The notes: generated by a model from the letters alone, not told the origin. 58,994 bases of DNA from an uncultured Candidatus Saccharibacteria bacterium (GCA_964599285.1 CAZREI010000004.1:1-58994), one strand, 5' to 3'. Counted from the first letter of the stretch, positions 5,411-23,114 are shown. Numbers and translations are program-made.

Positions 5411-5482
5411 GTCATTGCGAGGAGCGAAGCGACGTGGCAATCTAGTAATAAAAAAAGATTGCTTCACTTCGTTCGCAATGAC
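5411..5482. repeat. GTCATTGCG...GCAATC palindromic element upstream of lysS
   Basis: GTCATTGCGAGGAGCGAAGCGACGTGGCAATC...GATTGCTTCACTTCGTTCGCAATGAC; it artificially extends the lysS ORF at its 5' end. Confidence 0.85.
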
Positions 5483-5492
5483 GAGAACTCCT

Positions 5493-6980
5493 ATGGCAAC
5501 GATTGACGAGTTAAAAAAGGTTAGATTGGAAAAACTAAAGTCCCTACAGGATTCGGGGTTTTTGGCTTACCCGGCAACTACCAAGCGGACGCATTCTATT
5601 GCAGAAGCGTTGGAAAATTTTTCTAAGTTGGCCAAGTCGGAAAAAGAGATTGTCTTGGCCGGCCGAATTATGGCATTGCGAGGACACGGCGGCGCCACGT
5701 TTTTGGATGCCAATGATGGTTCAGGCAAATTGCAGGGACTTATTAAAGAAGATAAACTTGGCGAAAAAGGTTATAAGTTTTTTATTGACCACTTTGATAT
5801 TGGCGACTTTGTGGAAATCAAAGGCATTTTGATCAAAACCAAACGGGGAGAGCAAACGATTGAAGCCAGCGATTATAAAATGCTGGCAAAGTCGCTCTTG
5901 CCTTTGCCAGAAAAGTGGCACGGCTTGCAAGACGAAGAGGAAAAGTTGCGCAAGCGCTATTTGGATATTTTATTTAATCCGGAAGTTAAGCAAATGATTC
6001 AAAAGCGCGCGGTGTTTTGGAATGCCATGCGCGAATTTTTGACAGAAAAAGGATTTTTGGAAGTAGAAACTCCGGTACTAGAAGTGACTACGGGAGGCGC
6101 CGATGCCAAGCCGTTTGTGACACACCACAACGCGCTTGACCTGGATGTATATTTGCGCATTTCCACCGGCGAACTTTGGCAAAAGAAACTGATGGTGGCG
6201 GGATTTGAAAAAACGTTTGAAATCGGCCGGCAGTTCCGCAACGAAGGCATGGACGCCGAGCACTTGCAAGACTACACCCAAATGGAATTTTACTGGGCTT
6301 ACGCTGATTATCAGCAGGGCATGGATTTAGTGGAGGAGCTGTATAAATACATTATCAAAAAAACCTTTGGCACGCTGAAGTTTGAAATTCGCGGGTTCAA
6401 AGTGGACTTTGCGAAAAAGTGGCAAAAGTACGATTACCAAACCGTCATCAACCAGTATGCCGGCATCAATATTTTTGAAGCCGCGTTGCCAGAAATGGAA
6501 AAGCAGTTGCAAAAATTAGGCATTACTTACGACAAAAACGGGTTTAACAAAACTCGAGCTATTGATAACTTGTGGAAATATTGCCGAAAAAATTTGGCCG
6601 GTCCTGGGTTTTTGATAAATTTACCGGTTGATGTGTCGCCACTTGCCAAACGAATGGAAACCGCCTCCGCCAAGGCTTCGGCAGGTCAAAGTAAAATGGC
6701 GCAAAGGTTCCAGGTGATTTTGGCCGGCAGTGAAATGGGTAATGGTTACAGCGAATTAAACGACCCCATTGACCAGGAAGAAAGATTTAAAGAACAGGAA
6801 AAATTGCGAAAAGAAGGGGATCAAGAAGCCCAAATGTTTGATAAAGACTTTGTGGAAGCGCTGGAATACGGCATGCCACCAACCTGCGGATTTGGAGTTT
6901 CAGAAAGATTATTTAGCTTTTTGATGGACAAGCCAGCCAGAGAAACCCAAATTTTTCCGCTGATGAAACCAAAGATGTGA
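5493..6980 (+). CDS. lysS: Lysine--tRNA ligase (class II)
   Basis: OB-fold N-terminus, FLEVETP, EIGRQFRNEG (motif 2), YGMPPTCGFG (motif 3). Start placed at MATIDEL. Confidence 0.96.
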   Translation: MATIDELKKVRLEKLKSLQDSGFLAYPATTKRTHSIAEALENFSKLAKSEKEIVLAGRIMALRGHGGATFLDANDGSGKLQGLIKEDKLGEKGYKFFIDHFDIGDFVEIKGILIKTKRGEQTIEASDYKMLAKSLLPLPEKWHGLQDEEEKLRKRYLDILFNPEVKQMIQKRAVFWNAMREFLTEKGFLEVETPVLEVTTGGADAKPFVTHHNALDLDVYLRISTGELWQKKLMVAGFEKTFEIGRQFRNEGMDAEHLQDYTQMEFYWAYADYQQGMDLVEELYKYIIKKTFGTLKFEIRGFKVDFAKKWQKYDYQTVINQYAGINIFEAALPEMEKQLQKLGITYDKNGFNKTRAIDNLWKYCRKNLAGPGFLINLPVDVSPLAKRMETASAKASAGQSKMAQRFQVILAGSEMGNGYSELNDPIDQEERFKEQEKLRKEGDQEAQMFDKDFVEALEYGMPPTCGFGVSERLFSFLMDKPARETQIFPLMKPKM

Positions 6981-7007
6981 TTTATGATTTAGGATTTAAG
7001 ATTTATG

Positions 7008-7032
7008 AATCCGTCGAAAGGCGGATTTTTTT
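7008..7032 (+). terminator. Intrinsic terminator after lysS
   Basis: AATCCGTC-GAAA-GGCGGATT followed by a T run. Confidence 0.7.
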
Positions 7033-7101
7033 AATGAAACTAGCGACCTTATTTATAAAGAAAAAGGCGACCACTTGGATCGCCTTGTCAGCGCATCGCG
7101 C

Positions 7102-8103
7102 CTACTTTGAATCTTGGAACATAACCCTGATTAACCCCAACTTGTGATTTGGGTTATTCTTGTTATGCTCGCGGACCGAATCAGAAAAATTGTGGGCGTG
7201 TCCGTACACCATCAGGAATAGTCGGTCACTACTTGTTCTGGCTTGGGCAGATATAATTCTTATTGCCGCGTCCTCCCGATCTTTAAATATTGTTCTTTGA
7301 TCCAGGTCGACCGCATCTTCGGGTATTATGGTTTCTTTTGTTTCTGCTCCTTTTGGGATAATGTCTCCATCAATAAGCAGTTTAAATGGGAGACCGGGTC
7401 GTATGTAGACGTAGTTATCGCTTGCTATGGAAAACACGTTACTATTAGCCCACATGCGCGCTTCTTTGATGGTTGCTTCAGCTTGGGTAACTCTCTTTTT
7501 CTCTGGGTCAAGCATCGGAGGGTTCTCCCTAAAATACTTTTCCATTGATTGGATTTTTTTAGAGAGCAGGTATATAAAAATGGTCTCCCCGAACTTGTCT
7601 TTCCCTGGCACCTTAAGAGCATGCTCATCAAATAACTCTGCCGCTGCTTGGTATGAGAAAGCCGTGATCGCAAACTCATCCCATTCTTTCTTCTGGTTTT
7701 TAACCAACCTTATTAGCTCTTCTGTCCTTTCTTCTGTCAAACCTTCAAAGTAGACTATTCTATCGCAATATCCCGTGCTTTGGACCACAGGGATGATACA
7801 CTCAATCTTCTTCTGCGACCTTATAATGATGTCTGCGAAAAGGAAATTTCTGTGCTCTTTTTCTGATCTGTGGATTTGTGGTATGTGGACGATGTAAGGA
7901 CCGGATCCGTTGTCAACTTGGAGTGCAACATCAAATCCATGCTTGGAACCGAGCTCCTTCAATATACCAAGCAGTTCCTCTCTTGATTCTATCTCTTTGG
8001 CCTCTCTATCCAATCGACCAACACAGCAAAGCCAAAACCCGCTCCCAACAATAAGCAAGGTCAAAACAAGTAGTCTGTGCGAGAGTTTCTTTTTATTTAA
8101 CAC
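7102..8103 (-). CDS. Hypothetical membrane-anchored protein
   Basis: N-terminal basic stretch plus TM; AAGGAG SD before GTG; own promoter (TTGACA-17-TAAAGT, 8196-8224 minus) and terminator hairpin near 7061-7086. Confidence 0.7.
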   Translation of the reverse strand: MLNKKKLSHRLLVLTLLIVGSGFWLCCVGRLDREAKEIESREELLGILKELGSKHGFDVALQVDNGSGPYIVHIPQIHRSEKEHRNFLFADIIIRSQKKIECIIPVVQSTGYCDRIVYFEGLTEERTEELIRLVKNQKKEWDEFAITAFSYQAAAELFDEHALKVPGKDKFGETIFIYLLSKKIQSMEKYFRENPPMLDPEKKRVTQAEATIKEARMWANSNVFSIASDNYVYIRPGLPFKLLIDGDIIPKGAETKETIIPEDAVDLDQRTIFKDREDAAIRIISAQARTSSDRLFLMVYGHAHNFSDSVREHNKNNPNHKLGLIRVMFQDSK

Positions 8104-8265
8104 GTTAAGCTCCTTCTAGGCAGTTTTCGAAACAGCTCGTACACCATAGAACGACTATGGTAAGATACTGTTTATTTGTTAAGGTTCATGTCGTTACTTT
8201 ATATCATTTTAAAGTATATGTCAATAGTTGTTGGCTTTCTATAATTTTGATACAATCACTAAATT

Positions 8266-8691
8266 ATGAGTAAAAAGATATTAGTGTTTGGTACTTTTGA
8301 CGGACTGCACGACGGGCATAAGGATTTTTTTCGGCAGGCTCGTGAATTTGGTGACCATTTAGTGGTGGTGGTTGGGCGAGACTCAACTATCATAAAAACC
8401 AAGGGACGGCCGCCGAAGTTTAACGAACAGGAACGGCTGGCGGCCGTGGGCGCCGCAGAATATGTGGATGAAGCTCGCTTGGGCAACGAGGCTGTACTTG
8501 GTGAAAAGTTTAACCCCTACAAAGTTATTGAAGAAATAAAACCCGACGTTATTTGTTTAGGCTACGACCAGACTCATTTTACAGAAAAGCTGGCGGAAAA
8601 AATAAAAGAGATGGGGCTAAGCATTGAAATCAAAAGACTGAAAGCATATAGGCCTGAAATGTACCATTCTTCAATCATTAACAAGCAGTAG
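8266..8691 (+). CDS. Cytidylyltransferase-family protein (FAD synthase RibL-like)
   Basis: FGTFDGLHDGH (HxGH) motif and ICLGYDQ. Confidence 0.8.
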   Translation: MSKKILVFGTFDGLHDGHKDFFRQAREFGDHLVVVVGRDSTIIKTKGRPPKFNEQERLAAVGAAEYVDEARLGNEAVLGEKFNPYKVIEEIKPDVICLGYDQTHFTEKLAEKIKEMGLSIEIKRLKAYRPEMYHSSIINKQ

Positions 8692-8715
8692 GCTTATTCG
8701 TACGAATAGGAGAAT

Positions 8716-8982
8716 ATGAATAACAAAGATACCGTTAAATTTTTTAAAACACTAGGTAACGAAAGAAGGTTTTTAATTTTACGATATTTATTTGGTAATA
8801 AGGAGCTGACTGTTGGGCAAATCAGCGGTTTAATAAAACTTTCTTTTCGGAGCACATCAAAACATTTGGGCATATTAACGGGAATGGATTTGGTCACGAT
8901 ACGACAAGAAAGTTTACACAAATTCTATTCACTTAATTATGCAAAATTCCCAAAACAATTTATTACATTTTTCAAAAACTAA
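8716..8982 (+). CDS. ArsR/SmtB-family HTH transcriptional regulator
   Basis: FKTLGNERRFLIL...ELTVGQIS...STSKHL...FYSL pattern. Confidence 0.82.
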   Translation: MNNKDTVKFFKTLGNERRFLILRYLFGNKELTVGQISGLIKLSFRSTSKHLGILTGMDLVTIRQESLHKFYSLNYAKFPKQFITFFKN

Positions 8983-8996
8983 TTTTGAGAATTAAT

Positions 8997-9030
8997 ACTA
9001 TTCGCTTATTCGTACGAATAAGCGAATAGT
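8997..9030. promoter_or_regulatory. Perfect 34 bp palindrome, candidate operator; 17-mer core repeated at 8692-8708
   Basis: ACTATTCGCTTATTCGT|ACGAATAAGCGAATAGT. Confidence 0.5.
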
Positions 9031-9038
9031 TACTACCC

Positions 9039-10334
9039 ATGCTAGATATCAATAACATTCGCGATCACAAAGAAGAAACTAAAAAGTCCCTTTTGAAAAG
9101 ATTAAAAGAAGGCGATTTTAATTTGGATGAAATTATTGGTTTGGACGACCAGCGCAAACAGTTGCTCACCAAAGTTGAGCAACTTAAAGCCGAGCGCAAT
9201 AAAAATTCCAAAACCAAACCCACTCCAGAAATGATTGAAAAAATGAAAATGGTTGGAGAGGAAATAAAATCGTTAGATGAGCAAATAAAAAATGTAGAAA
9301 GCCAACTAAAAGAAACAGTATCAGCTCTGCCTAATCTTCTGTCCGAAGACGTGCCGGTGGGAAAAGATGAATCGGAAAATAAAGTTATCAGACAGTGGGG
9401 AAGTGTGCCAAAATTTAGCTTTGAAATAAAGGATCATGTGCGGCTTGGGCAGGATCTGGATTTAATCGACAATGAAACTGCTTCAAAGGTTTCCGGTGCG
9501 CGTTTTACCTATTTAAAAAATGAGTTGGCTCTGTTGCAATTTGCCTTAATCCAGCACGCATTTTTTGTTTTAACTAATCCCAAAATTATTAAAAAAATTG
9601 CCGATTCAGTAAAAAAGGGATTTAGCGCAAAGCCGTTTACGCTCGTTATTCCACCGGTTATGGTAAAACCCGACGTATTTTGGAAAATGGCGCGATTGGA
9701 ACCCAAAGAAGAACGATATTACATTCCATCAGACAGTGTGTATCTAGTGGGAAGTGCCGAGCATACGTTGGGGCCCATGCACATGGATCAAGTTATTTTA
9801 GAGCAGGATTTGCCGTTGCGTTACGTGGGATATTCGACCGCGTTTCGCCGAGAAGCCGGATCGTACGGAAAAGATACCAAGGGCATTTTACGTATGCACC
9901 AGTTTGATAAAATTGAAATGGAAAGTTTTTCAAAGCCGGAAGACTCTATTGGCGAACAGAATTTTTTTGTAGCTATCCAGGAATACCTATTGCAATCATT
10001 GAAAATTCCATACCAGGTGGTGATGATTTGCACCGGAGATATGGGCGGACCCGATGCCCGGCAAATTGATATTGAGTGCTGGATGCCCGGGCAAAATAAA
10101 TATCGGGAAACCCATACCGCAGATTTGATGACTGATTATCAAGCACGCCGGTTAAATACGAAACTCAAAAGAAAAAATGGTAAAAATGAATTTGTCCACA
10201 TGAACGATGCCACGGTTTTTGCTATTGGCAGGACCTTAATTGCTATTTTGGAAAATTACCAGCAAAAAGATGGGAGCGTGAAAGTGCCCAAGGTTTTGCA
10301 AAAATATACGGGGTTTAAGGTTATTCGTCGTTAG
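9039..10334 (+). CDS. serS: Serine--tRNA ligase
   Basis: MLDI N-terminal coiled coil, LPNL, AFRREAGSYGKDTKGILRMHQFDK, HMNDATVFAIGRTLIAILENYQ. Confidence 0.96.
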   Translation: MLDINNIRDHKEETKKSLLKRLKEGDFNLDEIIGLDDQRKQLLTKVEQLKAERNKNSKTKPTPEMIEKMKMVGEEIKSLDEQIKNVESQLKETVSALPNLLSEDVPVGKDESENKVIRQWGSVPKFSFEIKDHVRLGQDLDLIDNETASKVSGARFTYLKNELALLQFALIQHAFFVLTNPKIIKKIADSVKKGFSAKPFTLVIPPVMVKPDVFWKMARLEPKEERYYIPSDSVYLVGSAEHTLGPMHMDQVILEQDLPLRYVGYSTAFRREAGSYGKDTKGILRMHQFDKIEMESFSKPEDSIGEQNFFVAIQEYLLQSLKIPYQVVMICTGDMGGPDARQIDIECWMPGQNKYRETHTADLMTDYQARRLNTKLKRKNGKNEFVHMNDATVFAIGRTLIAILENYQQKDGSVKVPKVLQKYTGFKVIRR

Positions 10335-10337
10335 TTC

Positions 10338-10447
10338 GTCATTGCGAGGCGCACCGAAGCAATCTTAAGGCAACTGGATTGCCACGCTGACAAGATGTGG
10401 GTGTAATTGGCCGCAGCCAATTCGCCCCATCTTTGGCTCGCAGTGAC
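10338..10447. repeat. GTCATTGCG palindromic element
   Basis: GTCATTGCGAGGCGCACCGAAGCAATC...GATTGCCACG...GCTCGCAGTGAC. Confidence 0.8.
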
Positions 10448-10452
10448 GACAC

Positions 10453-11244
10453 GTGAGTGTGGAAGAAAGACAAATTTTGGTTAAAAATTTACAGGTAAAC
10501 TACAAGGTTTTTGGCCAAGGCAAGCCCATGCTTATTTTGCATGGCTGGCCTTCAAGTTCGGAAAAATGGGTGGCGGTGGGGGAATTATTATCGCAAACCC
10601 ATTCGGCGGGCTCGGGGCAGGAAGGTTTGAAAGTGATTGTTCCCGATTTGCCTGGTTTTGGCAAAAGCCAGCAGCCTTCGCAAGCTTGGAATACCGACAG
10701 TTACATTGAATGGGTCAGAGAATTTTGTGACAATGTGGACGGTCTTGCGGGCGAATTTTATTTGCTGGGGCATTCCTTTGGCGGGTCGCTGGCGGCAAAG
10801 TTTGCCGTAAAATATAACCAACGAATTACAAAACTTTTTTTAATTTCCGCGGCGGCAGTCCGAGAATCCACTCCCAAAAAAAAGTTTTATTATCAGATTT
10901 CCAGAGTAGGAAAAATATTTTCTTTTGTGCCCGGATACCCCCTTTTTAAAAAAGCTTTTTATAAATTTATCATCAGAAAAACCGATTATCCTTACGTAAA
11001 GGGCGTTATGAAAGAGACATACATAAAAGTAGTTTCGGAAGATTTATCGCATCGGCTGTCATTTATAAAAGTGCCGACCGTAATTATCTGGGGGGCAAAA
11101 GATGACTCAACGCCGCTGGAAGACGGCCAATTTATTCACGGAAAAATAAAAAATTCAACCCTGGTGGTAGTGCCAGATAAAAAGCATTCTTTGCAAATTG
11201 AAGCACCAGAATTGTTGGCCGAAAAAATATTAGCAAATATGTAA
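10453..11244 (+). CDS. Alpha/beta hydrolase
   Basis: LHGW, PDLPGFG, GHSFGG nucleophile elbow, WGAKD and a C-terminal His. Confidence 0.9.
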   Translation: MSVEERQILVKNLQVNYKVFGQGKPMLILHGWPSSSEKWVAVGELLSQTHSAGSGQEGLKVIVPDLPGFGKSQQPSQAWNTDSYIEWVREFCDNVDGLAGEFYLLGHSFGGSLAAKFAVKYNQRITKLFLISAAAVRESTPKKKFYYQISRVGKIFSFVPGYPLFKKAFYKFIIRKTDYPYVKGVMKETYIKVVSEDLSHRLSFIKVPTVIIWGAKDDSTPLEDGQFIHGKIKNSTLVVVPDKKHSLQIEAPELLAEKILANM

Positions 11245-11252
11245 CATAGTTC

Positions 11253-11319
11253 GTCATTGCGAGCAAAGCGAAGCAATCTTAGTAAAAAAATGGATTGCCA
11301 CGCTGCGGCTCGCAATGAC
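11253..11319. repeat. GTCATTGCG palindromic element upstream of the Mur ligase
   Basis: GTCATTGCGAGCAAAGCGAAGCAATC...GATTGCCACGCTGCGGCTCGCAATGAC. Confidence 0.85.
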
Positions 11320-11328
11320 GACCGATGG

Positions 11329-12972
11329 ATGGATTTTTTAATCAGAGCAATCAGTTTTCTTTGGTTTATAAGAACAATTAAGTTTGTTCTTTTTTGGATT
11401 TATCTTTGGCAGTTAAAGGAGTACCACGTTGGCCGATTTTTGGATCACTTTAAAACCTACAAAGGCAAAAAATTATTGTTTGATCCGCTGGTAGCTGTGA
11501 AAATACTTTTGCTGCCCTTACTTTTTTTACGTCCTGGATTTGCTTGGATTTTACTATTGGTTTATGGCGCGGAATTTTTGTTTTTTGGCTTAACGATTGT
11601 AAAAAGAACTTTCAAAAAACCGGTATTTACTGGCAAAGTCATTTTATTAACCGTTGTTTCTTTAGCATTGGCCGTGGCATTTTTGGTGGAGGCATACGTG
11701 GTCAAAAACAATGTCTTATTTGCCGCGAGCCTTTTGATTTTTGATATAGTTACTCCGATTGTCGTTTCTTTTGTTGTGCTGATATTTCAGCCATTTTTTG
11801 TAATGGCGCGCCGGCGAATTTTAAAAAAAGCGGCGCGAAAAATGGCAGAGCATAAAAATCTTATTGTTATTGGCATTACCGGAAGCTATGGCAAAACATC
11901 CACCAAAGAATTTTTAGCCACGATATTGTCATCAAAATTTAACGTGCTGGCTACGCCCGATCATAAAAATTCGGAAATGGGCATTGCGCAAACTATTTTG
12001 CAAGACCTGCGCCCCGAACACCAAGTGTTTATCGTGGAAATGGGGTCGTATAATAAAGGTGGCATAAAGTTATTGTGCGACATGGTAAAGCCGCGCATCG
12101 GCATGGTGACTGGCGTTAACCAACAGCACTTGGCAACGTTCGGATCTATGGAAAATTTGCTCTGGGCAGAAGGTGGCCGAGAGCTGGTTCAATGTTTGCC
12201 AAAAAATGGCTTGGTCATTGTTAATGGCGACAACCCTTACTGTTTGGATTTATACAAAAAAATATATACGCTGGCCGGCGGATTAAAAAAACAGTTGTAC
12301 ACGACAAAAAAGGAAAAATTGGAATCGGATATTTGGACCGAAGACATCAGCGTAAAAAAAGAAAGCCTGTCGTTTATCGCGCGCGACAAAGACGGGTACC
12401 TTGCCTCTATGAGTGTCAGCGTGCTTGGCAAACAGAATGTCCAAAATCTTCTGGCCGCGATACTGGCGGCAAAGAGCCTTGGCATGAGTTTGCAAGACAT
12501 TGCTCTGGCGGTCAAGCACATCAGGCCCGAACAAGCTGGCATGACTATAAAAAGGGGAGCGCACGGAATTGAAATTATTGATTCGTCGTACTCTTCAAAT
12601 CCCGATGGCGTGATGGCGGATTTGGATTATTTGAATATTTTTCCCGGAAGAAAAGTTTTGGTGATGCCTTGCTTAATTGAGTTGGGGAGTGAATCATCAA
12701 ACATCCACAAAAAAATAGGAAAAAAAATCGCCCAAGTTTGTGACATGGCAATTATTACTACTCGCGATCAATTTGAAAATATTAAAAAAGGAGCCACAGA
12801 AAATGGCATGGATGAAAAGCAAATCTTATTGTGCGACCCTTCGATTTCAATCAGGGCAGGCAAACCGCAGGAAATTGTAAGTCACATAACTACGTTCTGC
12901 AAAGAAGGCGACGCGGTGTTGCTGGAAGGTCGAGTGCCAAGCCAACTGATTACCTTATTATATGGACAGTAA
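11329..12972 (+). CDS. murF: MurF-like Mur ligase with N-terminal membrane segments
   Basis: ITGSYGKTSTKE P-loop, VEMG, IIDSSYSSNPDG, LVMPCLIELG. Confidence 0.8.
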   Translation: MDFLIRAISFLWFIRTIKFVLFWIYLWQLKEYHVGRFLDHFKTYKGKKLLFDPLVAVKILLLPLLFLRPGFAWILLLVYGAEFLFFGLTIVKRTFKKPVFTGKVILLTVVSLALAVAFLVEAYVVKNNVLFAASLLIFDIVTPIVVSFVVLIFQPFFVMARRRILKKAARKMAEHKNLIVIGITGSYGKTSTKEFLATILSSKFNVLATPDHKNSEMGIAQTILQDLRPEHQVFIVEMGSYNKGGIKLLCDMVKPRIGMVTGVNQQHLATFGSMENLLWAEGGRELVQCLPKNGLVIVNGDNPYCLDLYKKIYTLAGGLKKQLYTTKKEKLESDIWTEDISVKKESLSFIARDKDGYLASMSVSVLGKQNVQNLLAAILAAKSLGMSLQDIALAVKHIRPEQAGMTIKRGAHGIEIIDSSYSSNPDGVMADLDYLNIFPGRKVLVMPCLIELGSESSNIHKKIGKKIAQVCDMAIITTRDQFENIKKGATENGMDEKQILLCDPSISIRAGKPQEIVSHITTFCKEGDAVLLEGRVPSQLITLLYGQ

Positions 12973-14263
12973 ATTCCCAACCAAAGGCTGGTCCGCCCTT
13001 GGCGGAAAACCTATTTCTATTTCACTTTCTCCCAATGTCCAGCGCGACGATGTGGTTTTGGCTTTGAAGTTACTCTTTCAGCCTTGGAAGTGGAAGCGAG
13101 GTGGCGCCATCAAACAATTTGAAGATGAATTTAAAAATTACCTTGGCATCAAGTATGCGTTCTCTTTTAATAGTGGGAGGTCTTCGCTTTTCGCTATTTT
13201 GAAAGCGCTTAATTTGGAAAAAGGAAGTGATGTATTGTTACAGGCTTTTACCTGCAATGCAGTGCCAAATCCGGTATTATGGGCGGGTTTAAATCCAGTC
13301 TATGTTGATTGCACCGATGATTTTAATATTGACTTGTCGTCATTGCGAGCAACAGCGCGGCAATCCAGGGTATTGATAGTCCAGCACACGTTCGGCCTAC
13401 CCGCAAACCTGGATGAAGTTTTGGAAATTACCCGTCAACATAATATGGTTGTCATTGAAGATTGTGCCCACGCGCTTGGCGCGGAATTTAATGGAAACCC
13501 GGCCTTCGCGCAAGGCTTTGGCGGGCGAAGAAAAGTAGGCACCTTCGGTGACGCGGCATTTTTCAGTTTTTCGCGCGACAAAGTTATTTCTTCGGTGTAT
13601 GGAGGAATGGCAGTGACCAATAACGATCAGATTGGAAAAAAGTTAGAGGCACTTCAAAAAGAATTCGGCCAACCTAGTTTTTTTTGGATAAGACAACAAA
13701 TTCTGCATTCTATTTTACTTTGGTTTATTATCTTGCCGTTATATAATGTTATAGATCTTGGAAAATTATTTTTGGTGTTTTCGCAGTGGCTGCAGGTATT
13801 ATCAAAAGCGGTAAGCTGGCAGGAAAAGCGCGGCCAAAAACCTGATTATTTTCCCAAGGCCCTGCCCAATGCTTTGGCCGCGATGGCGTTGCATCAATTT
13901 GAAAAATTGGAAACATTTAACGCGCATCGCAAAAAAATTGCCGAATTTTATTATCAGGAATTGCAGAATACAACTTTTGTGTTGCCCAAACCCGGTGGTA
14001 TTTTTTTGCGCTTTGCTGTCCAGCATCCCAAGGCTCATGAAATATTGTATGAAGCTTGGCATCAGGAGAACATGTTGCTGGGGGATTGGTATCGCAGTCC
14101 CGTGGATCCGCATGATACACAATTAGAAGCGCTCAAATACCAAAAAGGAACCTGCCCAAACGCCGAAAGCCTAGCCAAAAAAACCTTAAACCTGCCAACC
14201 CACATCAATATTTCCATGGAAAATGCACGAAGAATCGTAGATTTTTTGAAAAAATGGAAATAA
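12962..14263 (+). CDS. DegT/DnrJ/EryC1/StrS-family PLP aminotransferase
   Basis: FNSGRSSL, IVQHTFG, VIEDCAHALG, FSFSRDK and LNLPTH. Confidence 0.9.
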   Translation: MDSKFPTKGWSALGGKPISISLSPNVQRDDVVLALKLLFQPWKWKRGGAIKQFEDEFKNYLGIKYAFSFNSGRSSLFAILKALNLEKGSDVLLQAFTCNAVPNPVLWAGLNPVYVDCTDDFNIDLSSLRATARQSRVLIVQHTFGLPANLDEVLEITRQHNMVVIEDCAHALGAEFNGNPAFAQGFGGRRKVGTFGDAAFFSFSRDKVISSVYGGMAVTNNDQIGKKLEALQKEFGQPSFFWIRQQILHSILLWFIILPLYNVIDLGKLFLVFSQWLQVLSKAVSWQEKRGQKPDYFPKALPNALAAMALHQFEKLETFNAHRKKIAEFYYQELQNTTFVLPKPGGIFLRFAVQHPKAHEILYEAWHQENMLLGDWYRSPVDPHDTQLEALKYQKGTCPNAESLAKKTLNLPTHINISMENARRIVDFLKKWK

Positions 14264-14307
14264 AAATGGGCAGATAGTCATGCGACTGTCTGCCCTACGA
14301 TAATGAA

Positions 14308-14535
14308 CTATGCGCGGAATGCCGCAACCTCTTTGAACCTGATAGCAACCTTGCCCCCCGTTTCAATTTTGAGGTAGAAGTGATCATTGGCCACTGTTGT
14401 CGGCACTCCTTCGTATTCCTTGCCACCGGAAATAACGACGTGGCACTTATGACCCCGCCCATACTTCTCATCGGCCATGTCCTGCAAACGAGATCTGAGC
14501 TGAGCTTCGAACCCCTCTTCGCGACGTCCAAACAT
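14308..14535 (-). CDS. Small hypothetical protein, possible Sm/LSm-like beta barrel
   Basis: AAGGAG SD before ATG (MFGRREE); C-terminal pattern CHVVISGGKEYEG...HFYLKIETGGKVAIRFKEVAAF. Confidence 0.55.
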   Translation of the reverse strand: MFGRREEGFEAQLRSRLQDMADEKYGRGHKCHVVISGGKEYEGVPTTVANDHFYLKIETGGKVAIRFKEVAAFRA

Positions 14536-14605
14536 GGATATCTCCTTGAATAAATCGAAAGGTTTCAACCAATAATTATGCTATCAGATTAAATTAAAGT
14601 TGTCA

Positions 14606-15637: not shown

Positions 15638-15742
15638 AACTAAATTACAAACCACAAATTACAAATCACAAACACGGTTTTGAATTTAGAGATTAGGATT
15701 TAGATATTGTTTGTAATTTGTATATTGTAATTTGGAATTTGC

Positions 15743-16558
15743 ATGAATTATCGGAAAAAGTATATAAGTCCAAGGGTGCGGCATCTTAAGCCCAAAAAAA
15801 AGTTTTTCCAAAAGCCGGTGTTTTGGATTGTGCTTGCGGCGGTTCTGGCCGGCGCGCTTGCCTATGTGTTGCTATTTTATTCAACGTTCCAGGTCAGTCA
15901 TATTGAAATTTCCGGAAACGAAAAAATTCATAGCCAAGATATTACCGCACGGGTGAATAAAGATATTCAAAAAACCTTTTTGGCCGCCGGCGCTTTTTCC
16001 ATTGCTTCCAGAAGTATTTTCATTGCTTCCAGTGGCGCTATTACCAAAGATTTGCTTGCCGCTTTTCCAGAAATGGAAAACGCGCGTGTGCAAAAAAAAC
16101 TGCCTCAAGATATTTTGATTACGATTGAAGAGCGCCAACCCTTTGCTGTTTTTTGTAATGGACAAAATCCGGAGCATTGTTTTTTCATTGATGATCAAGG
16201 CGTCGTTTTTCAATCATTGTCTTCTGACACGCAAAGCGATTTGCCCGTGATGAGGCTGACATCGGCCGGCCAAGTTGCGATGGGTCAAACAGTCGCTTCA
16301 GGCACAGAAATTGAAGCTGTCAAAAGTATTCAAAAAAATATAAAAAATAATTTCCAGATTGACGCCAAGGAAATTTGGCTTGGCACGCCGATGATTATAA
16401 AAACGTCGGAGCAGTGGAAACTCTATATTGATCCAACGCAAGATATTGATTTGCAAATTACCAAACTAAACGCGCTCCTTGGCAGTATGCCGGAAGCCAA
16501 TCGTAAAAACCTCCAGTATATTTATCTTCAATATAGAGACCGGGCGTTTTACAAATGA
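15743..16558 (+). CDS. FtsQ/DivIB-like POTRA-domain protein
   Basis: N-terminal TM, IEISGNEKI POTRA, KKLPQDILITIEER and C-terminal YIYLQYRDRAFYK. Confidence 0.72.
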   Translation: MNYRKKYISPRVRHLKPKKKFFQKPVFWIVLAAVLAGALAYVLLFYSTFQVSHIEISGNEKIHSQDITARVNKDIQKTFLAAGAFSIASRSIFIASSGAITKDLLAAFPEMENARVQKKLPQDILITIEERQPFAVFCNGQNPEHCFFIDDQGVVFQSLSSDTQSDLPVMRLTSAGQVAMGQTVASGTEIEAVKSIQKNIKNNFQIDAKEIWLGTPMIIKTSEQWKLYIDPTQDIDLQITKLNALLGSMPEANRKNLQYIYLQYRDRAFYK

Positions 16559-16679
16559 TTGATTTTTCGCACAAGCCCGGTATCTGCGTAAATATTGCGC
16601 AGATACCCGACTTGTGTGCGCCCTGGACAAAGTTTTTATTTTAGGTAGTATGCGTAGTTGAGTAACGCGATACACTGCC

Positions 16680-17342
16680 ATGAACCAAAAGCAAAAGGAG
16701 CTGGTCAAAGTTTTCATCTTTTTATTTATTTTCAGTTTTATTGTCATCAATTGGGAAGAGGTTTCCTGGATTTTTAATTACAAAGAGTTGTATGGCTTGG
16801 CCTACGATTTTTTTAATCCTTATCCTGACCAAAACGATACGTTGCTTAGCGATATTACCCTTGCCAGCATCAGCCCCGAGGCCATTCAAACACAAGCAAG
16901 CTACGATAAAATTATTACCGCGCTACAAATTCCAGCCATTGATCTTTCCACGCCTGTTATTCAAGCCGAAAGCACCGACCGGACCATCTTGGCACAAGAA
17001 CTTGACCAGGGCGCGGTGGATTACCCGGGATCTGTGTTGCCGGGGGACAACGGTCAAATTGTCATTTTGAGCCACTCGGCTCCGCCCAATTGGCCATGCG
17101 TCAAGCACGATTGCAATTTCAGCAAGCTGGAAAATTTGAATGTCGGAGACCAGATTATTTTACAGTCCAGCGACCACCAGTACATTTACCTTGTCAAGGA
17201 CAAAAAAATAATCCCCAAAGGAGGGGACATCAGTTCGCCATTGTTGACCGGTCAAAATAACATCGTAACACTGGTCAGCTGTTATCCGCCTGGTAAAAAC
17301 ATCCAGCGCATCGCCGTGACGGCAGAATTGCTAAAACAATGA
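16680..17342 (+). CDS. Sortase-family protein
   Basis: N-terminal TM, ILSHS (His), TLVSCYPPG (catalytic Cys) and QR (Arg). Confidence 0.88.
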   Translation: MNQKQKELVKVFIFLFIFSFIVINWEEVSWIFNYKELYGLAYDFFNPYPDQNDTLLSDITLASISPEAIQTQASYDKIITALQIPAIDLSTPVIQAESTDRTILAQELDQGAVDYPGSVLPGDNGQIVILSHSAPPNWPCVKHDCNFSKLENLNVGDQIILQSSDHQYIYLVKDKKIIPKGGDISSPLLTGQNNIVTLVSCYPPGKNIQRIAVTAELLKQ

Positions 17343-17401
17343 TAATGCAAATCTGCAAATCTTATGCGAATGCCGCGAATTTGCTAATCTACGAATTACT
17401 G

Positions 17402-17553
17402 GATTGCCACGTTGTGGATCGCAATGACGATGAGAGGTGTATACGCGTTCGTCGTCATTGCGAGTGCCGGCTCGCAAGCCGGACACGCGGCAATCCAGAC
17501 ACATTAGCAATTTTGTAGATTAGCATAAGATTTGTAGATTTGCATTGCCATTA
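17402..17553. repeat. GTCATTGCG element plus ACACATTAGCAATTTTGTAGAT repeat
   Basis: Inverted GATTGCC...GCAATGAC / GTCATTGCG...GCAATC pair; 17499-17553 is repeated at 18363-18449. Confidence 0.75.
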
Positions 17554-18177
17554 TTTTCGGCCTTCAAACGCCGACTCTAAAGTTTCCTCATCAGCATACT
17601 CAAGCTCTCCTCCCACCGGTAGGCCTTTTGCCAGGTGGGTTATTTTTATGGCTGCAAACGACGGCAGTTCTTTGAGTATTTTTTCCACGGCCAGGGATGC
17701 CGCTTTGCCCTCGGGTGTCGGGTTGGTGGCAATGATAATTTCCGTAATATCGTGTTTTGGCAGGCCGAACTTTTCCGGATTTTCCATGTGCTTTTTTAAA
17801 TCATCAATACGCAATTCGTTGTTGGCAACTTTGCGCAGGGTAAGCGAATTGCTTCCCAAAATAAAATACAGTCCTTTGTAGCGTTTGGTAGCTTCAATGG
17901 ACAATAAGTCCGTTTCTTTTTCCACAATGCACAACATTTGCCGATTGCGTCCGTTATCTTGACAGATTGGGCAGAGCTTTTGTTGGCTCTGGTGCGGGTT
18001 AAAACAAAAATCGCACAAAGCGATGCTGGTTTTTAATTCCTGGATGGCGCTGATAAGATTTTCCACTTCTTGTTTTGGCTGGTTAATCAAATAAAAAACA
18101 AAACGTCCGGCCGTGCGCGGACCAACGGTGGGGAACTTGGCAAAGAGGTCGGTAAGACGCTTTATGCTATCGGGCAT
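17551..18177 (-). CDS. recR: Recombination mediator RecR
   Basis: FPTVGPRTAGR, C4 zinc finger (CDFC...CPIC), Toprim IIATNPTPEG and GLPVGGELEYAD. Confidence 0.95.
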   Translation of the reverse strand: MPDSIKRLTDLFAKFPTVGPRTAGRFVFYLINQPKQEVENLISAIQELKTSIALCDFCFNPHQSQQKLCPICQDNGRNRQMLCIVEKETDLLSIEATKRYKGLYFILGSNSLTLRKVANNELRIDDLKKHMENPEKFGLPKHDITEIIIATNPTPEGKAASLAVEKILKELPSFAAIKITHLAKGLPVGGELEYADEETLESAFEGRK

Positions 18178-18259
18178 AAAAAATTATTCTAATTAACCTA
18201 ATTATTCTAATTAACCTAATCAAATCCCAATGACAAAATGTCTAAATTTGAAAACGCTG

Positions 18260-18449
18260 GATTGCCGCGTCTCCGACTCTGGTCGGGACTCGCAATGACG
18301 GTGAGTGAGTGAGTGTGTGTACGCACGCTCGTCATTGCGAGGTACGCCGAAGCAATCTTGTTACACATTAGCAATTTTGTAGATTAGCACAAGATTTTCC
18401 GCCGAAGGACGGATTCGTCCTCTGGCGAAGTAGATTTGCATTACCATTA
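18260..18449. repeat. GTCATTGCG element pair and repeat with an inserted CCGCC hairpin
   Basis: Direct sequence comparison with 17402-17553. Confidence 0.75.
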
Positions 18450-19814
18450 GTCCACCTGTATCTCCGTGGCGTAATCTCCCTGTTCCAGGTTTCTGAAGCT
18501 TACCCTATTATCGTCAAAATATAATTTAACCGCGCCGGTGGGGCCGTTGCGATGCTTTGCCACGATGATTTCGGCAATGTTTTTTTCCAGCGAATTTTCG
18601 TTATACTTGTCTTCGCGGTAGATAAACAAAACGACGTCGGCATCTTGTTCAATGGCTCCTGATTCGCGCAAGTCTGATAGCATTGGTCGGTGCGGCGTTC
18701 GCTGTTCCACGGCGCGGGATAGCTGGGACAAAACTAAAATCGGCACGTTCAGTTCCTTGGCCAGCATTTTCAAAGCGCGCGAATTTTCCGTCACCTGCTG
18801 AATGGGGCTTGCGTACTTGTTGCTATGATCCATCAGTTGCAGGTAGTCAATGACCAAAAGTCCCAGGCCCTTGTCTTGCTGCAGGCGGCGCGACATGGCT
18901 CGGATTTGCAAAATGTTGACCATGCCGATGTCGTTGATATACAGTGGCGCTTCGGACAAACTGCCCATGGCGCTTTGCAATCTTGAAAAATCATTGTCGC
19001 CGGCGCCGTCCTGCAGTTTGCCGGTGCGCAGCCTCCAGGAATCAATATTGGCGTGGCTTGCCAGCAATCTTTCCACCAGCTGATCTTTAGACATTTCCAA
19101 ACTAAATACTCCCACCGGTAAATTTTCCATGACGGCCACATGTTTGGCAATGTCCAGCGCCAACGAGGATTTTCCCATGCTGGGCCGCGCTGCCAAAATA
19201 ACCAAGTCAGACCGCTGCAGACCAGATAACATATTATCCAGTTGTTTAAAACCGGTGGGGATGCCGCGGTATTGGCCGGTGTGCTGGGACAATTGTTCAA
19301 TTCGCTCAAACGTTTCGGGCAGCAACTCCTTAATAGAAATAAAATTTTGGGTCAGCGATTTTTGGCCAATGCTAAATACCTTTTTTTCCGCTTTGTCCAG
19401 CAGGCTGTCCACTTCCTGCGATTCGTCAAAAGCGTCCAGGCCAATTTCTTCAGACGCCTGAATTAAGTCCCGCAGAATCTTTTTTTCGCGCACAATTTTG
19501 GCGTAGTTGGCAACGTGGGTGGCGGTGGGCACCAGGTTAATGAGGGAAGTTAAGTAGGCGCTGCCGCCGATACCGTCCAGCTGGCCTTTTTCGCGAAGCC
19601 GCGTGGACACTGAAATAATGTCAATGGGTTCCATTTTTTGGTACAAGTCCATCATGGTCTGGAACAGTTCCTTGTGGGTGTGCTTGTAAAAATCTTCCGC
19701 GCTGACAAAATCGCTGACCTTGATAATGGCGTTTTTGTCCAGCATCAAACAGCCCAGCAAACTTTGCTCGGCCTCAACGTTCTGAGGTGGTTTTTTAATG
19801 ATGGCTTCGGGCAT
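18447..19814 (-). CDS. dnaB: Replicative DNA helicase
   Basis: PPQNVEAEQSLLG, AARPSMGKS Walker A, IDYLQL, SDLRESGAIEQDAD and KHRNGPTG. Confidence 0.97.
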   Translation of the reverse strand: MPEAIIKKPPQNVEAEQSLLGCLMLDKNAIIKVSDFVSAEDFYKHTHKELFQTMMDLYQKMEPIDIISVSTRLREKGQLDGIGGSAYLTSLINLVPTATHVANYAKIVREKKILRDLIQASEEIGLDAFDESQEVDSLLDKAEKKVFSIGQKSLTQNFISIKELLPETFERIEQLSQHTGQYRGIPTGFKQLDNMLSGLQRSDLVILAARPSMGKSSLALDIAKHVAVMENLPVGVFSLEMSKDQLVERLLASHANIDSWRLRTGKLQDGAGDNDFSRLQSAMGSLSEAPLYINDIGMVNILQIRAMSRRLQQDKGLGLLVIDYLQLMDHSNKYASPIQQVTENSRALKMLAKELNVPILVLSQLSRAVEQRTPHRPMLSDLRESGAIEQDADVVLFIYREDKYNENSLEKNIAEIIVAKHRNGPTGAVKLYFDDNRVSFRNLEQGDYATEIQVD

Positions 19815-20006
19815 GGAGTATTCACGAATATACAAATACGTTCAAATATACAAATATTACAAATATACAAATCGAGTTGTCGTCATTGCGAGGCGCACTG
19901 AAGCAATCTTCACATTTGTATATTCGTAAAATTTGTATATTGTTTTAAATTTGTATATTCGTGATTACTCCTTTGTATACCAAAAACCACCAAAGCCAAC
20001 AAGACA

Positions 20007-20035
20007 TTGACAATGTACCTTATAAATGCTACCAT
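20007..20035 (+). promoter_or_regulatory. Sigma70-type promoter for the vWA gene
   Basis: TTGACA-17 nt-TACCAT. Confidence 0.6.
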
Positions 20036-20111
20036 TAGAGCGTGGTGTAAATCGTAAATTTACATCAAACAGTTACTTAAGAAACCATCACTCTCTCGGG
20101 AGGTACAGATC

Positions 20112-20828
20112 ATGCATCTGCAAGACGTCAGTCAGTGGGTTGGTAACCAGCTTATTGCTCAACGAGGGCAGATTCAGACAAAGGAAGTTACCCTTGTCCT
20201 GCTCCTCGTGGACGACTCTGGGTCTATCGAAGCGTCAGGCAATACCCAAGCCGTCATAGACGGCTACAACGGCTTCGTAGAGGCCTTAAGAAGTTCGCCG
20301 AGCGAAGTGCGCGTTAAGACAATGTTTTTGAATAACAAGGTCGATACGCCCTTCCAGGATTCCAACGAAGTGCAACAACTGACCGGACAAACCTATCGTC
20401 CACACGGACAGACGCCACTATTTCTACGCAGTATGCAGGCACTTGACCACGTTATTAACGAGGCCAAGGATCTGACAGGGCAGGGGTTGACGGTCCGCAC
20501 AATAACTTTCATCTTCACCGATGGTGGTGACAATGAATCCGGACTGATCACAGCTGCCACGGTAAAGGTGATCGTTGATGTGATGCTGACGACGGGCACG
20601 CACATCGTCGGAGGCTGTGCCGTCAACGATGGTCGTACCAACTTCTGGCAAGTATTTGCTTCCATGGGTATTCCCGAGCAGTGGGTAAGGGTTCTGGCGA
20701 ACGATGCCGGCGAAATCCACGAAGGTGTCGCCAGCATGGGAAAGGTTGCTGCCACAGCGAGTACTTGCCATAAAGTCTTTAAGGAGACAAGTTCCACAGG
20801 TTTTTCTATTGTGGATGACGGCAAGTAG
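20112..20828 (+). CDS. vWA (MIDAS) domain protein
   Basis: LLVDDSGS (DxSxS), TPL and FIFTDGGDNES; GGAGG SD. Confidence 0.85.
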   Translation: MHLQDVSQWVGNQLIAQRGQIQTKEVTLVLLLVDDSGSIEASGNTQAVIDGYNGFVEALRSSPSEVRVKTMFLNNKVDTPFQDSNEVQQLTGQTYRPHGQTPLFLRSMQALDHVINEAKDLTGQGLTVRTITFIFTDGGDNESGLITAATVKVIVDVMLTTGTHIVGGCAVNDGRTNFWQVFASMGIPEQWVRVLANDAGEIHEGVASMGKVAATASTCHKVFKETSSTGFSIVDDGK

Positions 20829-20983
20829 TAGTCCTTTGCGTTAACTGTGCTCTTTCTTTTTAACAAGGCCCTTAGTAACTTAAATGTGAACGGGGCCATC
20901 TATCTTAGGCTCAAATGGATTTTATATTTGAGGTTAAGATAGGTGTTAAGGGTTTCTGTTCTTTGTCAACAAGGAGACTTCGC

Positions 20984-21481
20984 ATGTCGTTGCCATCGTT
21001 TCAAAAAGCCATGACTGTTTTGGTTGACCCCTGGAAGACAATCGTAAAAATCGTAAGTGACCGTTTCCACGAAGATTATTTCTCAAACTTCGTAATTCTC
21101 GGCAAGTACGACGGAATTGAAAAAGTGAAAATAAATGCGTGGGCTATTGTGGGCTTAGCTCCGGGACAGTCAGGTTTTTTGGAGTGTCACGTCACTGCGG
21201 GCAAAGCTTCCAATAAAGCTTTTTGGATTTCCGAATTAAGAGACACGCTTAAAGTTCTCTCGAGCTCGGAGAATCCTGCGTTGGAAGAAATACAACTGCT
21301 TGGCGGCACGCTTCATGCTCGACTTGGAATTGATAAACATCATGTCGTTGGGATGGTTTCCCTGCATCAAACCACGGAAACCAAACAGAGCTTCGCAGTT
21401 TTATGGACGCATCCGGAAATTGAGCGTCCTCTCGTTGAGAAAATCATGAAGTACGTCCTTAACGATAGACTACAAACCTAA
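20984..21481 (+). CDS. Hypothetical protein
   Basis: AAGGAG SD before ATG at 20984; bidirectional terminator near 21525-21568. Confidence 0.6.
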   Translation: MSLPSFQKAMTVLVDPWKTIVKIVSDRFHEDYFSNFVILGKYDGIEKVKINAWAIVGLAPGQSGFLECHVTAGKASNKAFWISELRDTLKVLSSSENPALEEIQLLGGTLHARLGIDKHHVVGMVSLHQTTETKQSFAVLWTHPEIERPLVEKIMKYVLNDRLQT

Positions 21482-21617
21482 AACAGTGCAAATGAAGAAA
21501 GTCTTGTCGGAAATCTTTTCAACTAAAAACCCCCTGAACAGAAATGTAACAAGGGGTTCTTTTTTTATTCTAAATTCAGTTATTCAATTCCAGCTTCAAG
21601 ATACAAGATTCCAGATT

Positions 21618-23114
21618 CTAGTTTTTCTTCAACACTGTTCCGTCTTTGGTGTCGTCCACTGTGTATCCGTATTTTGCTATTTCTTTTCTTGCTTCATCGG
21701 CTTTTTGCCATTCTTTTTCTTTTCTATAATTTTCTCTTGCTTTTACCAGTTCCGTTACTTCTTTTGGCACGTTAGACGTTTTTAGTTTTTTAAAATCAAT
21801 GATATCAAAAATTTCATTTATTTCTTCAAAAAATTCGTAAATCTCTTTGGCGGTTTTTTTATCTAAAGCGCTTTCGCCCATCAGTTTGTTGACGTTTTTG
21901 ATAAGTTCAAAAAGCACAGCGAAGGCTTTGGGTGTGTTGAAGTCGTCAGCCAAGTTTTTGTAAAAATTCTCTTTTCCACCTTTGAGTAAGTTTTGAATTT
22001 TAGATTTTGGTAATTTAGATTTATTTGTGGTTTGCCCGCCTCGCCTTGACAGCGAGTCGAGGCTGGGTAATTTGTAATTTGTAATTTTTCGTAAAAATTC
22101 TTCGATTTTTTCCAGAGCCATTTTTACTTCTATCATCACTGATTCGGAGTAATCAACCGGTGAGTGCCACAAATTTTTAGCTATCCAAAATCGCAAATGT
22201 TGGACAGGGTAGCGCTGTAAAAAGTTATCAATGCTGGTGCCGTTGCCCAAAGACTTTGACATTTTTTGGCTGTCAACCGTTAAAAATCCGGTGTGCATCC
22301 AGTATTTTGCCATCGGTTTTTTGTCGGACAAAGATTCCATCTGGGTGATTTCGGCTTCGTGGTGCGGAAATATCAAATCTCGTGCGCCGCCGTGAATGTC
22401 GTATTGGGCCCCAAAAAATGTTTCAGTAATGGCCGTGTCTTCAATGTGCCAACCCGGCCGTCCTGCTCCAAATGGTGCCGGCCACTGCGGCTCGCCTTCA
22501 ATAGTTCCGATTTTATCGAGAATCCTCGGCGCAGTCGGGACAAATTTCCACAAGCAAAAGTCGCCCCGATTTTTTTTGTTCTTGCTGTAATCAATGCGCG
22601 ATACGGAGTCTTCGGCCTGCAGGGCGGTTCTGTGCGATAGCTTGCCATAATGTTTAACCTTGGAAATATCAAAATAAATGCCGTCGTCCAGGGTGTAGGC
22701 AAATCCCTTTTTTTGCAATCTTTCCACTTGGCTGATAATTTCTTTAATGTAGTCGGTGGCTTTGGCGTATTTGTTGACGGTGGTGATATGAAGATTTTTC
22801 ATATCTTTTAAGTGTTCTTGAAAAAATGCTTCGGCCAAGTGCTCAGCCGACACTCCTTTTTCCCGCGCCCGCTGGATTATTTTATCATCTACATCGGTGA
22901 TATTTTGCAGGTAAAAAACGGTAAAGCCCGCGTGCTGTAAATATTTTACAAAGCAGTCAAAAATAATATAGGTTCTGGCGTGTCCAATGTGAGAAAAGTC
23001 GTACACGGTTGGGCCGCACACAAAAAGATTTACTTTTTTGTTTTTCAGGGGTTTAAGCAAATCTTTTTTGCCCGTGAGCGTGTTGTAAATTTTAATGGGT
23101 GATTTGGTTTTCAT
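21618..23114 (-). CDS. cysS: Cysteine--tRNA ligase
   Basis: CGPTVYDFSHIGH, GRPGWHIE, DIHGGARDLIFPHHEAE and KMSKS. Confidence 0.97.
   Translation of the reverse strand: MKTKSPIKIYNTLTGKKDLLKPLKNKKVNLFVCGPTVYDFSHIGHARTYIIFDCFVKYLQHAGFTVFYLQNITDVDDKIIQRAREKGVSAEHLAEAFFQEHLKDMKNLHITTVNKYAKATDYIKEIISQVERLQKKGFAYTLDDGIYFDISKVKHYGKLSHRTALQAEDSVSRIDYSKNKKNRGDFCLWKFVPTAPRILDKIGTIEGEPQWPAPFGAGRPGWHIEDTAITETFFGAQYDIHGGARDLIFPHHEAEITQMESLSDKKPMAKYWMHTGFLTVDSQKMSKSLGNGTSIDNFLQRYPVQHLRFWIAKNLWHSPVDYSESVMIEVKMALEKIEEFLRKITNYKLPSLDSLSRRGGQTTNKSKLPKSKIQNLLKGGKENFYKNLADDFNTPKAFAVLFELIKNVNKLMGESALDKKTAKEIYEFFEEINEIFDIIDFKKLKTSNVPKEVTELVKARENYRKEKEWQKADEARKEIAKYGYTVDDTKDGTVLKKN

Follow-up and report, generated by a model that had tools for sequence, protein, structure and literature searches.

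Short GC-rich repeats read in frame within housekeeping genes of a Candidatus Saccharibacteria genome

Introduction

Small dispersed repeats (SDR4 to SDR6) of 21-27 nt, with no known enzyme, were reportedly described by Elhai and co-workers in 2008 in Nostoc and related cyanobacteria. Here, short GC-rich repeats that are read in frame within housekeeping genes were analyzed in an uncultured Candidatus Saccharibacteria bacterium, on the contig CAZREI010000004.1:1-58994 of assembly GCA_964599285.1. This whole stretch of 58,994 nucleotides is called the window, and its positions are counted from the first letter. An initial annotation, made from the sequence alone, had proposed that several enzymes encoded here carry extra peptides specified by GC-rich mini-palindromes, in parallel with the palindromic elements of Rickettsia. 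Those elements, RPE-1 to RPE-10 (Ogata et al. 2000, 2002; summarized in PMC10969869), are about 100-150 bp long, are confined to Rickettsia and encode one conserved peptide in one frame (PMC10969869). The repetitive extragenic palindromic (REP) elements of the REP/REPIN-RAYT systems are short GC-rich imperfect palindromes that lie outside genes, are specific to a species and are accompanied by a RAYT gene, with inverted doublets (REPINs) as the mobile unit (PMC3116915; PMC6006769).

Among these systems, the cyanobacterial repeats, as they are said to behave, would seem the closest to the units found here in size and behavior. The likeness lies in the size class, in presence or absence between relatives, in nesting within other repeats and in intragenic copies; unlike what is reported of them, the units belong to another phylum and have other sequences, their insertion excess was quantified, loops are used recurrently, and one family has a target motif. 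The parallel with Rickettsia held in part. In both cases dispersed families in a reduced genome are read through in frame in unrelated housekeeping genes, at places compatible with loops. However, the inserts here have 24-39 bases and not ~150 and are of unrelated origin; the units, of 22-60 nt, occur in either orientation and in several frames, a number of them are not palindromic, and one word is present in at least 51 genera. Compared with REP elements, which they resemble in being short, GC-rich and in some cases imperfectly palindromic, they have many intragenic copies and a phylum-wide word, and the genome has no PF01797 gene. No paper describing such elements in Patescibacteria was found in full-text literature searches.

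Results

The window is contig C4 of the genome under study, G000 (858,846 bases in 24 contigs, 43.5% GC). Its closest database homologs of cysteinyl-tRNA synthetase (CysRS) carry Candidatus Staskawiczbacteria names (Patescibacteria, or candidate phyla radiation, CPR). Gene calls were approximated as open reading frames (ORFs) with matches in relatives, and each protein was aligned with up to 29 orthologs from 24 same-genus and 16 same-order genomes (about 6-8 same-order orthologs per protein, beside 24 congeneric ones). The extra peptides were found where they had been placed, to within 1-3 bases (Table 1). Their status as insertions relative to orthologs, as proposed in the initial annotation, is backed by these alignments: most of the 24 congeners lack each of the listed segments except the one at 13337 in the DegT aminotransferase gene, which brings no gain in length. 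Since this segment aligns at equal length with native sequence of distant homologs, it is a replacement, not a pure insertion; the region is hypervariable in the genus, and sequence similar to the segment was seen in G003, G005 and G019. All other segments have 8-13 residues each. Every segment is rich in GC, and the GC content of the four scored in the trio comparison described below is 0.70-0.73, against 0.435 for the genome.

The insert in lysS is missing from 26 of 28 aligned lysyl-tRNA synthetases (LysRS), the carriers being G000 and G021, and its word was found again in other genes. That in the hydrolase is carried only by G000 and G003. At the Mur-ligase point 27 of 30 orthologs have no insert; PSISIRAG itself occurs only in G000, while G022 has a 27-nt (9-residue) insert of EALAK type and G015 a 39-nt (13-residue) double hairpin. 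The N-terminal DegT insert is missing from all 29 other DegT orthologs, and the insert at 13496 was G000-only in both the trio comparison and the ortholog alignment, with different inserts at that point in other species. Nearly all congeners lack the two cysS inserts. Other inserts adjoin the first site in the CysRS of G021 and G024, and an unrelated insert of 10 residues occupies the second site in G015, the closest relative.

It was further seen that the first cysS insert lies within a stretch of ACAAAT words (about 22005-22090). Genus-wide (L002-L022), the linker that follows the catalytic domain of CysRS is made of the same ACAAAT/ACGAAT-type words as the intergenic repeat arrays, giving peptides such as KITNYKLQITNKSKI and IRSTKSEIR; therefore, the hairpin of this insert is nested in an older word stretch. 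In two congeners, G010 and G023 (L024, L028), cysS has internal stops (1 TAG and 2 TAA; 1 TGA and 1 TAG), which could mean pseudogenes or assembly errors.

Segments of this kind were then scored genome-wide in 371 reciprocal-best ortholog trios (median identity ~70%) that join G000 with G015 (39.1% GC; whole genome used) and G020 (37.9% GC; most of the genome used). Internal indels were taken if they were clean, spanned at least 4 residues and had conserved flanks, and polarity was read from the three genomes as a star phylogeny. Present in one genome only were 165 segments (53, 51 and 61), and absent from one only were 43 (17, 16 and 10), so that gains outnumber losses roughly 4:1. The one-genome segments have 55.9% GC, against 43.2% for two-genome segments (p=7e-8), with length peaks at 8 (30 cases) and 10 residues (22 cases). 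When each was compared with five matched control coding segments, they were GC-richer and folded better (p=2e-5 to 7e-11). Non-self matches of at least 36 bits within the own genome were obtained for 34%, 27% and 16% of inserts, against 2.3%, 2.4% and 0% of controls. Bit scores replaced a looser copy criterion (at least 15 nt at 93% identity), which 29-36% of controls passed; matching of G000 inserts to G015 and G020 gave no information, since controls matched their own orthologs. The proposed active route for adding peptide loops thus gains support from the ~4:1 excess of gains, from differing inserts at one loop in different species, and from one word recurring at one site in lineages that are not sisters.

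This last point was examined in gene trees. In the LysRS tree the two carriers were united in none of 200 bootstrap trees, G021 pairing with the insert-free G005. The hydrolase tree places G000 with G002 and G005, and G003 with G012; a forced union of G000 and G003 was rejected (AU p=0.007). The two hydrolase inserts are nevertheless identical at 21 of 24 nt, against 55% identity of the proteins. In 120 CysRS homologs from the database, inserts of 4 or more residues cluster at the two loops used in G000 (12 sequences at that of insert 2 and ~23 at the other), and some insert families from these homologs recur in other G000 genes (for example, PDASEVGSAGSPVS vs PDASKAGSAGLPVS at C16:12839). Moreover, of 401 genomes (320 genera) sampled evenly across the phylum, 56 (51 genera) contain the 19-mer TTCGCCAAGGCTTCGGCGG with at most one mismatch, and none contains its reversed control.

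The initial annotation spoke of several short families with related copies between genes. Both statements proved correct, and at least eight families were distinguished. The abundant repeat CGTCATTGCGAG has 111 copies in G000, of which 102 lie outside conserved coding sequence. The hairpin of the first cysS insert belongs to a mostly intergenic family, CCCRGCCTCGACTCGCYGTCRAGGCGAGGCGGGC, with at least 12 copies in G000, one of them at 45615-45648 of the window; its members sit within arrays of ACAAAT or CGCGGAA words, and the copy in cysS shares ACAAAT flanks with copies on C6 and C10. Two related word families, ACCCTTCGACAAGCTCAGGGCAAG and TTCGCCAAGGCTTCGGCGG, underlie the inserts of lysS, the hydrolase and the Mur ligase. 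Those of the hydrolase and Mur ligase belong to a 24-nt unit, RACCCTTCGACAAGCTCAGGGCAAG (~10 copies), which keeps consistent ends, RACCCTTCGAC...GGGCAAG, across independent copies; those of lysS and DegT 13496 belong to the related word CCNCC-TTCGCCAAGGCTTCGGCGG-GCAAG (~16 copies). Nesting was also seen, in ACGCGGAA arrays and in CGTCATTGCGAG elements, and one inverted doublet only was seen (C6:46730).

The 53 G000-only segments of the trios likewise sort into recognizable families: the words named here, after their commonest readings, SAKASA and SGQA; ACGCGGAA and ACAAAT words; CGTCATTGCGAG copies; pure GC palindromes; a 60-66-nt element whose ends form 15-nt inverted repeats and which reads VHPVKSA...KQFNRV; and a 39-nt double hairpin read as PAERDQGPLSGPT. 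In a comparison with MITEs, which have terminal inverted repeats and a target-site duplication, no such duplication was definable for the VHPVK...KQFNRV element, and the 24-nt words have no inverted ends.

Repeats of the CGTCATTGCGAG family at 5410-5500 and 11252-11330 lie just upstream of lysS and the Mur-ligase gene. They leave the frame open, so the longest ORFs of these genes begin about 25-30 codons too early (LRGAKRRGNL... and LRAKRSNLSKK...); the true starts are at MATIDEL in lysS and near MDFLI in the Mur-ligase gene.

Folding of each window site as single-stranded DNA was compared with dinucleotide shuffles. Two of eight sites folded significantly, the first cysS insert (z -3.45) and the N-terminal DegT insert (z -2.0). 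For lysS (z +0.7), the hydrolase (+1.5), the Mur ligase (-0.3), the second cysS insert (-0.5), DegT 13496 (-0.1) and DegT 13337 (-0.15) the fold was not significant. The term mini-palindrome is therefore only partly right; the other six sites are better described as GC-rich repeat words, those in lysS, the hydrolase and the Mur ligase being 24-base and weakly pairing.

The frames in which the words are read indicate that the repeated unit is DNA, not peptide. One word was read as SAKASA (18), LRQGFGG (6) or PAPRLRR (2) and on the opposite strand as an EALAK-type peptide (9), the second as PSTSSGQA (8) or LRQAQGK (3); in these counts some loci are doubled by overlapping ORFs. The skew to frames with small polar residues is what randomly phased insertions would show after filtering by selection. 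Relative to replication, the orientation of the words was not significant (7 of 9 and 9 of 13), so that a sense-strand bias is inseparable from a replication bias. Among ~630 conserved genes screened, no out-of-frame interruption was found in the two genes checked, which argues for translation of the segments and not for their removal. The predicted peptides that span the inserts are, for instance, KRMETASAKASAGQSK in LysRS and KLPSLDSLSRRGGQ in CysRS. The screen for split genes gave one match, outside the window at C13:13797-14170, where a conserved gene has a 373-nt (~124-aa) in-frame insertion relative to its G015 ortholog.

Surface loops had been expected as the sites of the extra peptides, and one protein, CysRS, was modeled with AlphaFold2 on the 120-sequence alignment. 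The model was confident overall (mean pLDDT 89.2, pTM 0.89). Its sole weak blocks, residues 191-210 (pLDDT 67, 65) and 351-370 (56, 56), are mostly non-regular and hold both inserts. In agreement with that expectation, the CysRS inserts are thus predicted to lie in low-confidence loops, with the rest of the fold confident.

The 39-nt double hairpin (CCCGCTNAGCGGGG-N5-GGTCCGCTNAGCGGACC-GACA) was found 18 times in G000 and twice in G015, and it is missing from 39 other relatives. Of the 18, nine follow ATTRTGCRAC, five follow CATTGCGA/G inside the CGTCATTGCGAG repeat and three are in reverse orientation. The element ends in CGACA, which regenerates its insertion site, and arithmetic on two coding-sequence copies suggests, not with certainty, that it inserts without target duplication. 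It looks like a fusion of two subterminal hairpins and, as in minimal IS200/IS605 derivatives, lies 3' of a fixed short target with no evident duplication (PMC3201880; PMC5027513). As to the orientation bias relative to replication (lagging-strand template) of such elements, seven of 14 copies are co-oriented with GC skew.

The motif ATTRTGCGAC itself occurs 52 times in G000, against 0-4 times for each single-mismatch neighbor. It is co-oriented with GC skew in 43 of the 52 copies (p=2e-6), and on contig C1 orientation and skew flip together at ~50-60 kb, near a XerC/D-like gene. The hot spot in the Mur ligase coincides with one copy, directly after which three species have three different inserts; in G000 the insert starts directly after the motif copy ATTGTGCGAC. 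Sites of the 13-mer form, TTATTRTGCGACA, lie in coding sequence in several frames, after terminator hairpins or tRNA 3' ends, and before promoters. This polar motif may be an architecture motif of KOPS or Chi type.

Candidate enzymes were also looked for. Two G000 genes of ~100 aa with a GIY-YIG domain adjoin tRNA genes. One lies at C6:47179-47388. About seven hairpins with a GCTNAGC loop, a double hairpin among them, lie within 0.6 kb of the other (C14:16605-16814), and the double hairpin abuts an apparent tRNA-gene start that ARAGORN left uncalled. What links this candidate to the GCTNAGC hairpins is proximity, and the solitary hairpins inside genes have no nuclease gene. The region C14:16437-17280, outside the window, holds a tRNA-Tyr, then the ~99-aa GIY-YIG gene, then an apparent tRNA split by ~200 nt (5' part GATGTAGCTCAGTGG..CCATGG, 3' part GGTCGTGAGTTCAATCCTCACCA), possibly an intron-containing tRNA. 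For the three PDDEXK_3 (GxxExxY) genes in G000 no link to the in-gene words was found. Double hairpins cluster in C1:40-70 kb; the ORFs of this region, scanned by eye without Pfam, showed nothing notable beyond the XerC/D-like gene.

Discussion

The comparisons demonstrated a lineage-specific gain of the segments, their membership of repeat families, their reading in several frames and on both strands, hot-spot loops, a phylum-wide word and the insertion point of the double hairpin. The reading we prefer, with a probability of about 0.65, is that several families of very short repeat DNA are copied to new sites and that, in genes, selection keeps the copies that are in frame, stop-free and in loops. 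Very short (~22-60 nt) GC-rich repeat DNA would multiply within and between Patescibacteria genomes as DNA, and copies would land both between genes and inside them. Those surviving in genes would be the ones with a multiple of three bases (modes at 24 and 30 nt) and no stop, the latter nearly automatic because the DNA is GC-rich. They would be read in the frame and orientation that give small polar residues (SAKASA, PSTSSGQA), would sit in permissive surface loops and would be translated as extra loop residues. The double hairpin might be moved by a hairpin-recognizing single-strand or homing nuclease, or by a transposase, an enzymology that we infer; the words of 24-30 nt might move likewise, or result from template switching or short-patch recombination.

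Several results weigh against the preferred reading. First, most of the listed inserts have no significant structure, and therefore a hairpin mechanism cannot be general. Secondly, the SAKASA and SGQA words lie nearly only in conserved coding sequence (15 of 17 and 18 of 25 copies), mostly in sense orientation, which is unusual for selfish DNA and could reflect peptide selection or gene-to-gene copying. Thirdly, the second cysS insert has no further copy anywhere in G000. In addition, the search for target-site duplications at the hydrolase, lysS, Mur-ligase and double-hairpin sites gave only short, ambiguous and inconsistent matches (GAC, CGAC, GCAR). A Y1 transposase (PF01797, of IS200/IS605 or RAYT type) had no match in G000 and was present in 24 of 41 relatives, among them G021 (C11:44605-44943), and no transposase or other enzyme could be tied to the 24-30-nt words in G000.

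An explanation without any dedicated mobile element is, in our view, rather unlikely. The segments would then be templated patches left by replication or repair, through template switching, microhomology-mediated copying or recombination of short patches with DNA taken up, the commonest GC-rich repeats serving as the commonest donors. Such patches would need neither an enzyme for the words nor a clear target duplication, and they agree with the variable insert ends seen for one word (24, 27, 30 and 33 nt). They also agree with the Mur-ligase hot spot, which lies exactly at a replication-polar motif and received three unrelated inserts, and with words common to species whose genes are saturated with change, as DNA exchange predicts. 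However, intergenic copies that could act as donors of the SGQA and SAKASA words are few or absent in G000, the 24-nt unit keeps its ends in independent copies, and the insertion point of the double hairpin is sharp in 14 of 18 copies.

A further reading is also unlikely: a phylum-wide pool of 24-39-nt 'coding-compatible' words that would spread without a resident transposase and generate new protein loops. The words may be installed from single strands, taken up or repeat-derived, at replication-linked spots like TTATTRTGCGACA, or by GIY-YIG nucleases that recognize GCTNAGC hairpins. A pool of this kind would account for the same word in the same loop of separate species, for the 4:1 insertion excess and for words that are nearly identical across genera.

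That the relatives lost ancestral loops time and again, and that there was no insertion, is highly improbable. Such loss might be argued from the lysS and hydrolase inserts, each common to two species, and from hairpin elements moved by Y1 enzymes, which can excise precisely and so be erased cleanly (PMC5027513). But each insert occurs in 1-2 of ~24 congeners and in no same-order outgroup, so that at least five independent exact losses would be needed; the carriers are not sisters, the insert DNA is better conserved than its flanks, and unique presences exceed unique absences (165 vs 43). Equally remote is convergence at the protein level on selected functional modules, such as flexible linkers or interaction tags. 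One frame is indeed favored (SAKASA in 18 of 35 cases, PSTSSGQA in 8 of 12), as is the sense strand, and the words are almost confined to coding sequence. Against this, the same nucleotide word gives unrelated peptides in other frames or antisense, nucleotide identity of 83-88% is far beyond what peptide convergence needs, and the host proteins and sites are unrelated, with the model placing inserts in disordered loops. GC-rich in-frame bypass elements exist in some yeast mitochondria; removal of the segments around expression (intron-like, intein-like or by translational bypass) is nevertheless hardly tenable here, as are assembly artefacts, for the copies in ~630 conserved genes are in frame and stop-free, a constraint that would not exist were they removed, the two genes checked are uninterrupted, and other species, assembled independently, have homologous inserts.

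If copying of repeat DNA into genes is the true explanation, essential enzymes of the smallest bacterial genomes are continually lengthened by 8-13 codons of selfish or copied DNA, counter to the usual bacterial deletion bias. This would be a countable source of loop insertions in CPR proteins, one that complicates annotation, alignment and structure prediction. The targeted double hairpin and the phylum-wide 19-mer would serve as handles for finding the responsible enzyme or process.

Additional observations

The coordinates of the inserts, related repeats and host genes are collected in Table 1.

Table 1. Inserts, repeats and genes of the window. Positions are counted from the first letter of the window; residue numbers refer to CysRS.
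Feature	Position	Strand	Remarks
lysS in-frame insert (T)ASAKASA, 8 residues, 24 nt	6660..6686	+	copy of SAKASA word GCCTCCGCCAAGGCTTCGGCAGG
Hydrolase in-frame insert THSAGSGQ, 24 nt	10597..10620	+	variant of SGQA word
Polar-motif copy ATTGTGCGAC inside Mur-ligase gene	12828..12837	+	encodes LLCD
Mur-ligase in-frame insert PSISIRAG, 24 nt	12838..12861	+	SGQA-type word CCTTCGATTTCAATCAGGGCAGGC
DegT N-terminal insert PTKGWSALGG, 30 nt	12977..13006	+	holds mini-hairpin TCCGCCCTTGGCGGA
DegT copy of CGTCATTGCGAG...GGCAATCCAG repeat	13337..13373	+	read as SSLRATARQSRV; exact 12-mer of 111-copy family
DegT insert NPAFAQGFGGR, 33 nt	13496..13528	+	SAKASA word in another frame
cysS insert 1, PSLDSLSRRGG (residues 350-360)	22035..22067	-	34-nt GC hairpin CCCAGCCTCGACTCGCTGTCAAGGCGAGGCGGGC
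cysS insert 2, PTAPRILDKIGT (residues 193-204), 36 nt	22503..22538	-	imperfect palindrome
Intergenic CGTCATTGCGAG...GAAGCAATC repeat copy	10337..10366	+	between serS and hydrolase gene
Further CGTCATTGCGAG-repeat copies	starts 5410, 11252, 11309(-), 17453, 18289(-), 18330, 19881		
13-mer form of polar motif, TTATTRTGCGACA	3721, 12072, 12828, 44969, 45068, 55572, 58164	+ (all)	
LysRS	5415-6980		Pfam
SerRS	9039-10334		Pfam
Alpha/beta hydrolase	10453-11244		Pfam
Mur ligase	11257-12972		Pfam
DegT aminotransferase	12962-14263		Pfam
CysRS	21618-23114	-	Pfam

At 859 kb and 43.5% GC, G000 is larger and GC-richer than its two closest relatives (~0.79-0.81 Mb, 38-39% GC), and its stop-free ORFs of 90 aa or more outnumber theirs by ~45%. 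This surplus in size, GC content and ORFs may be due in part to the GC-rich repeats.

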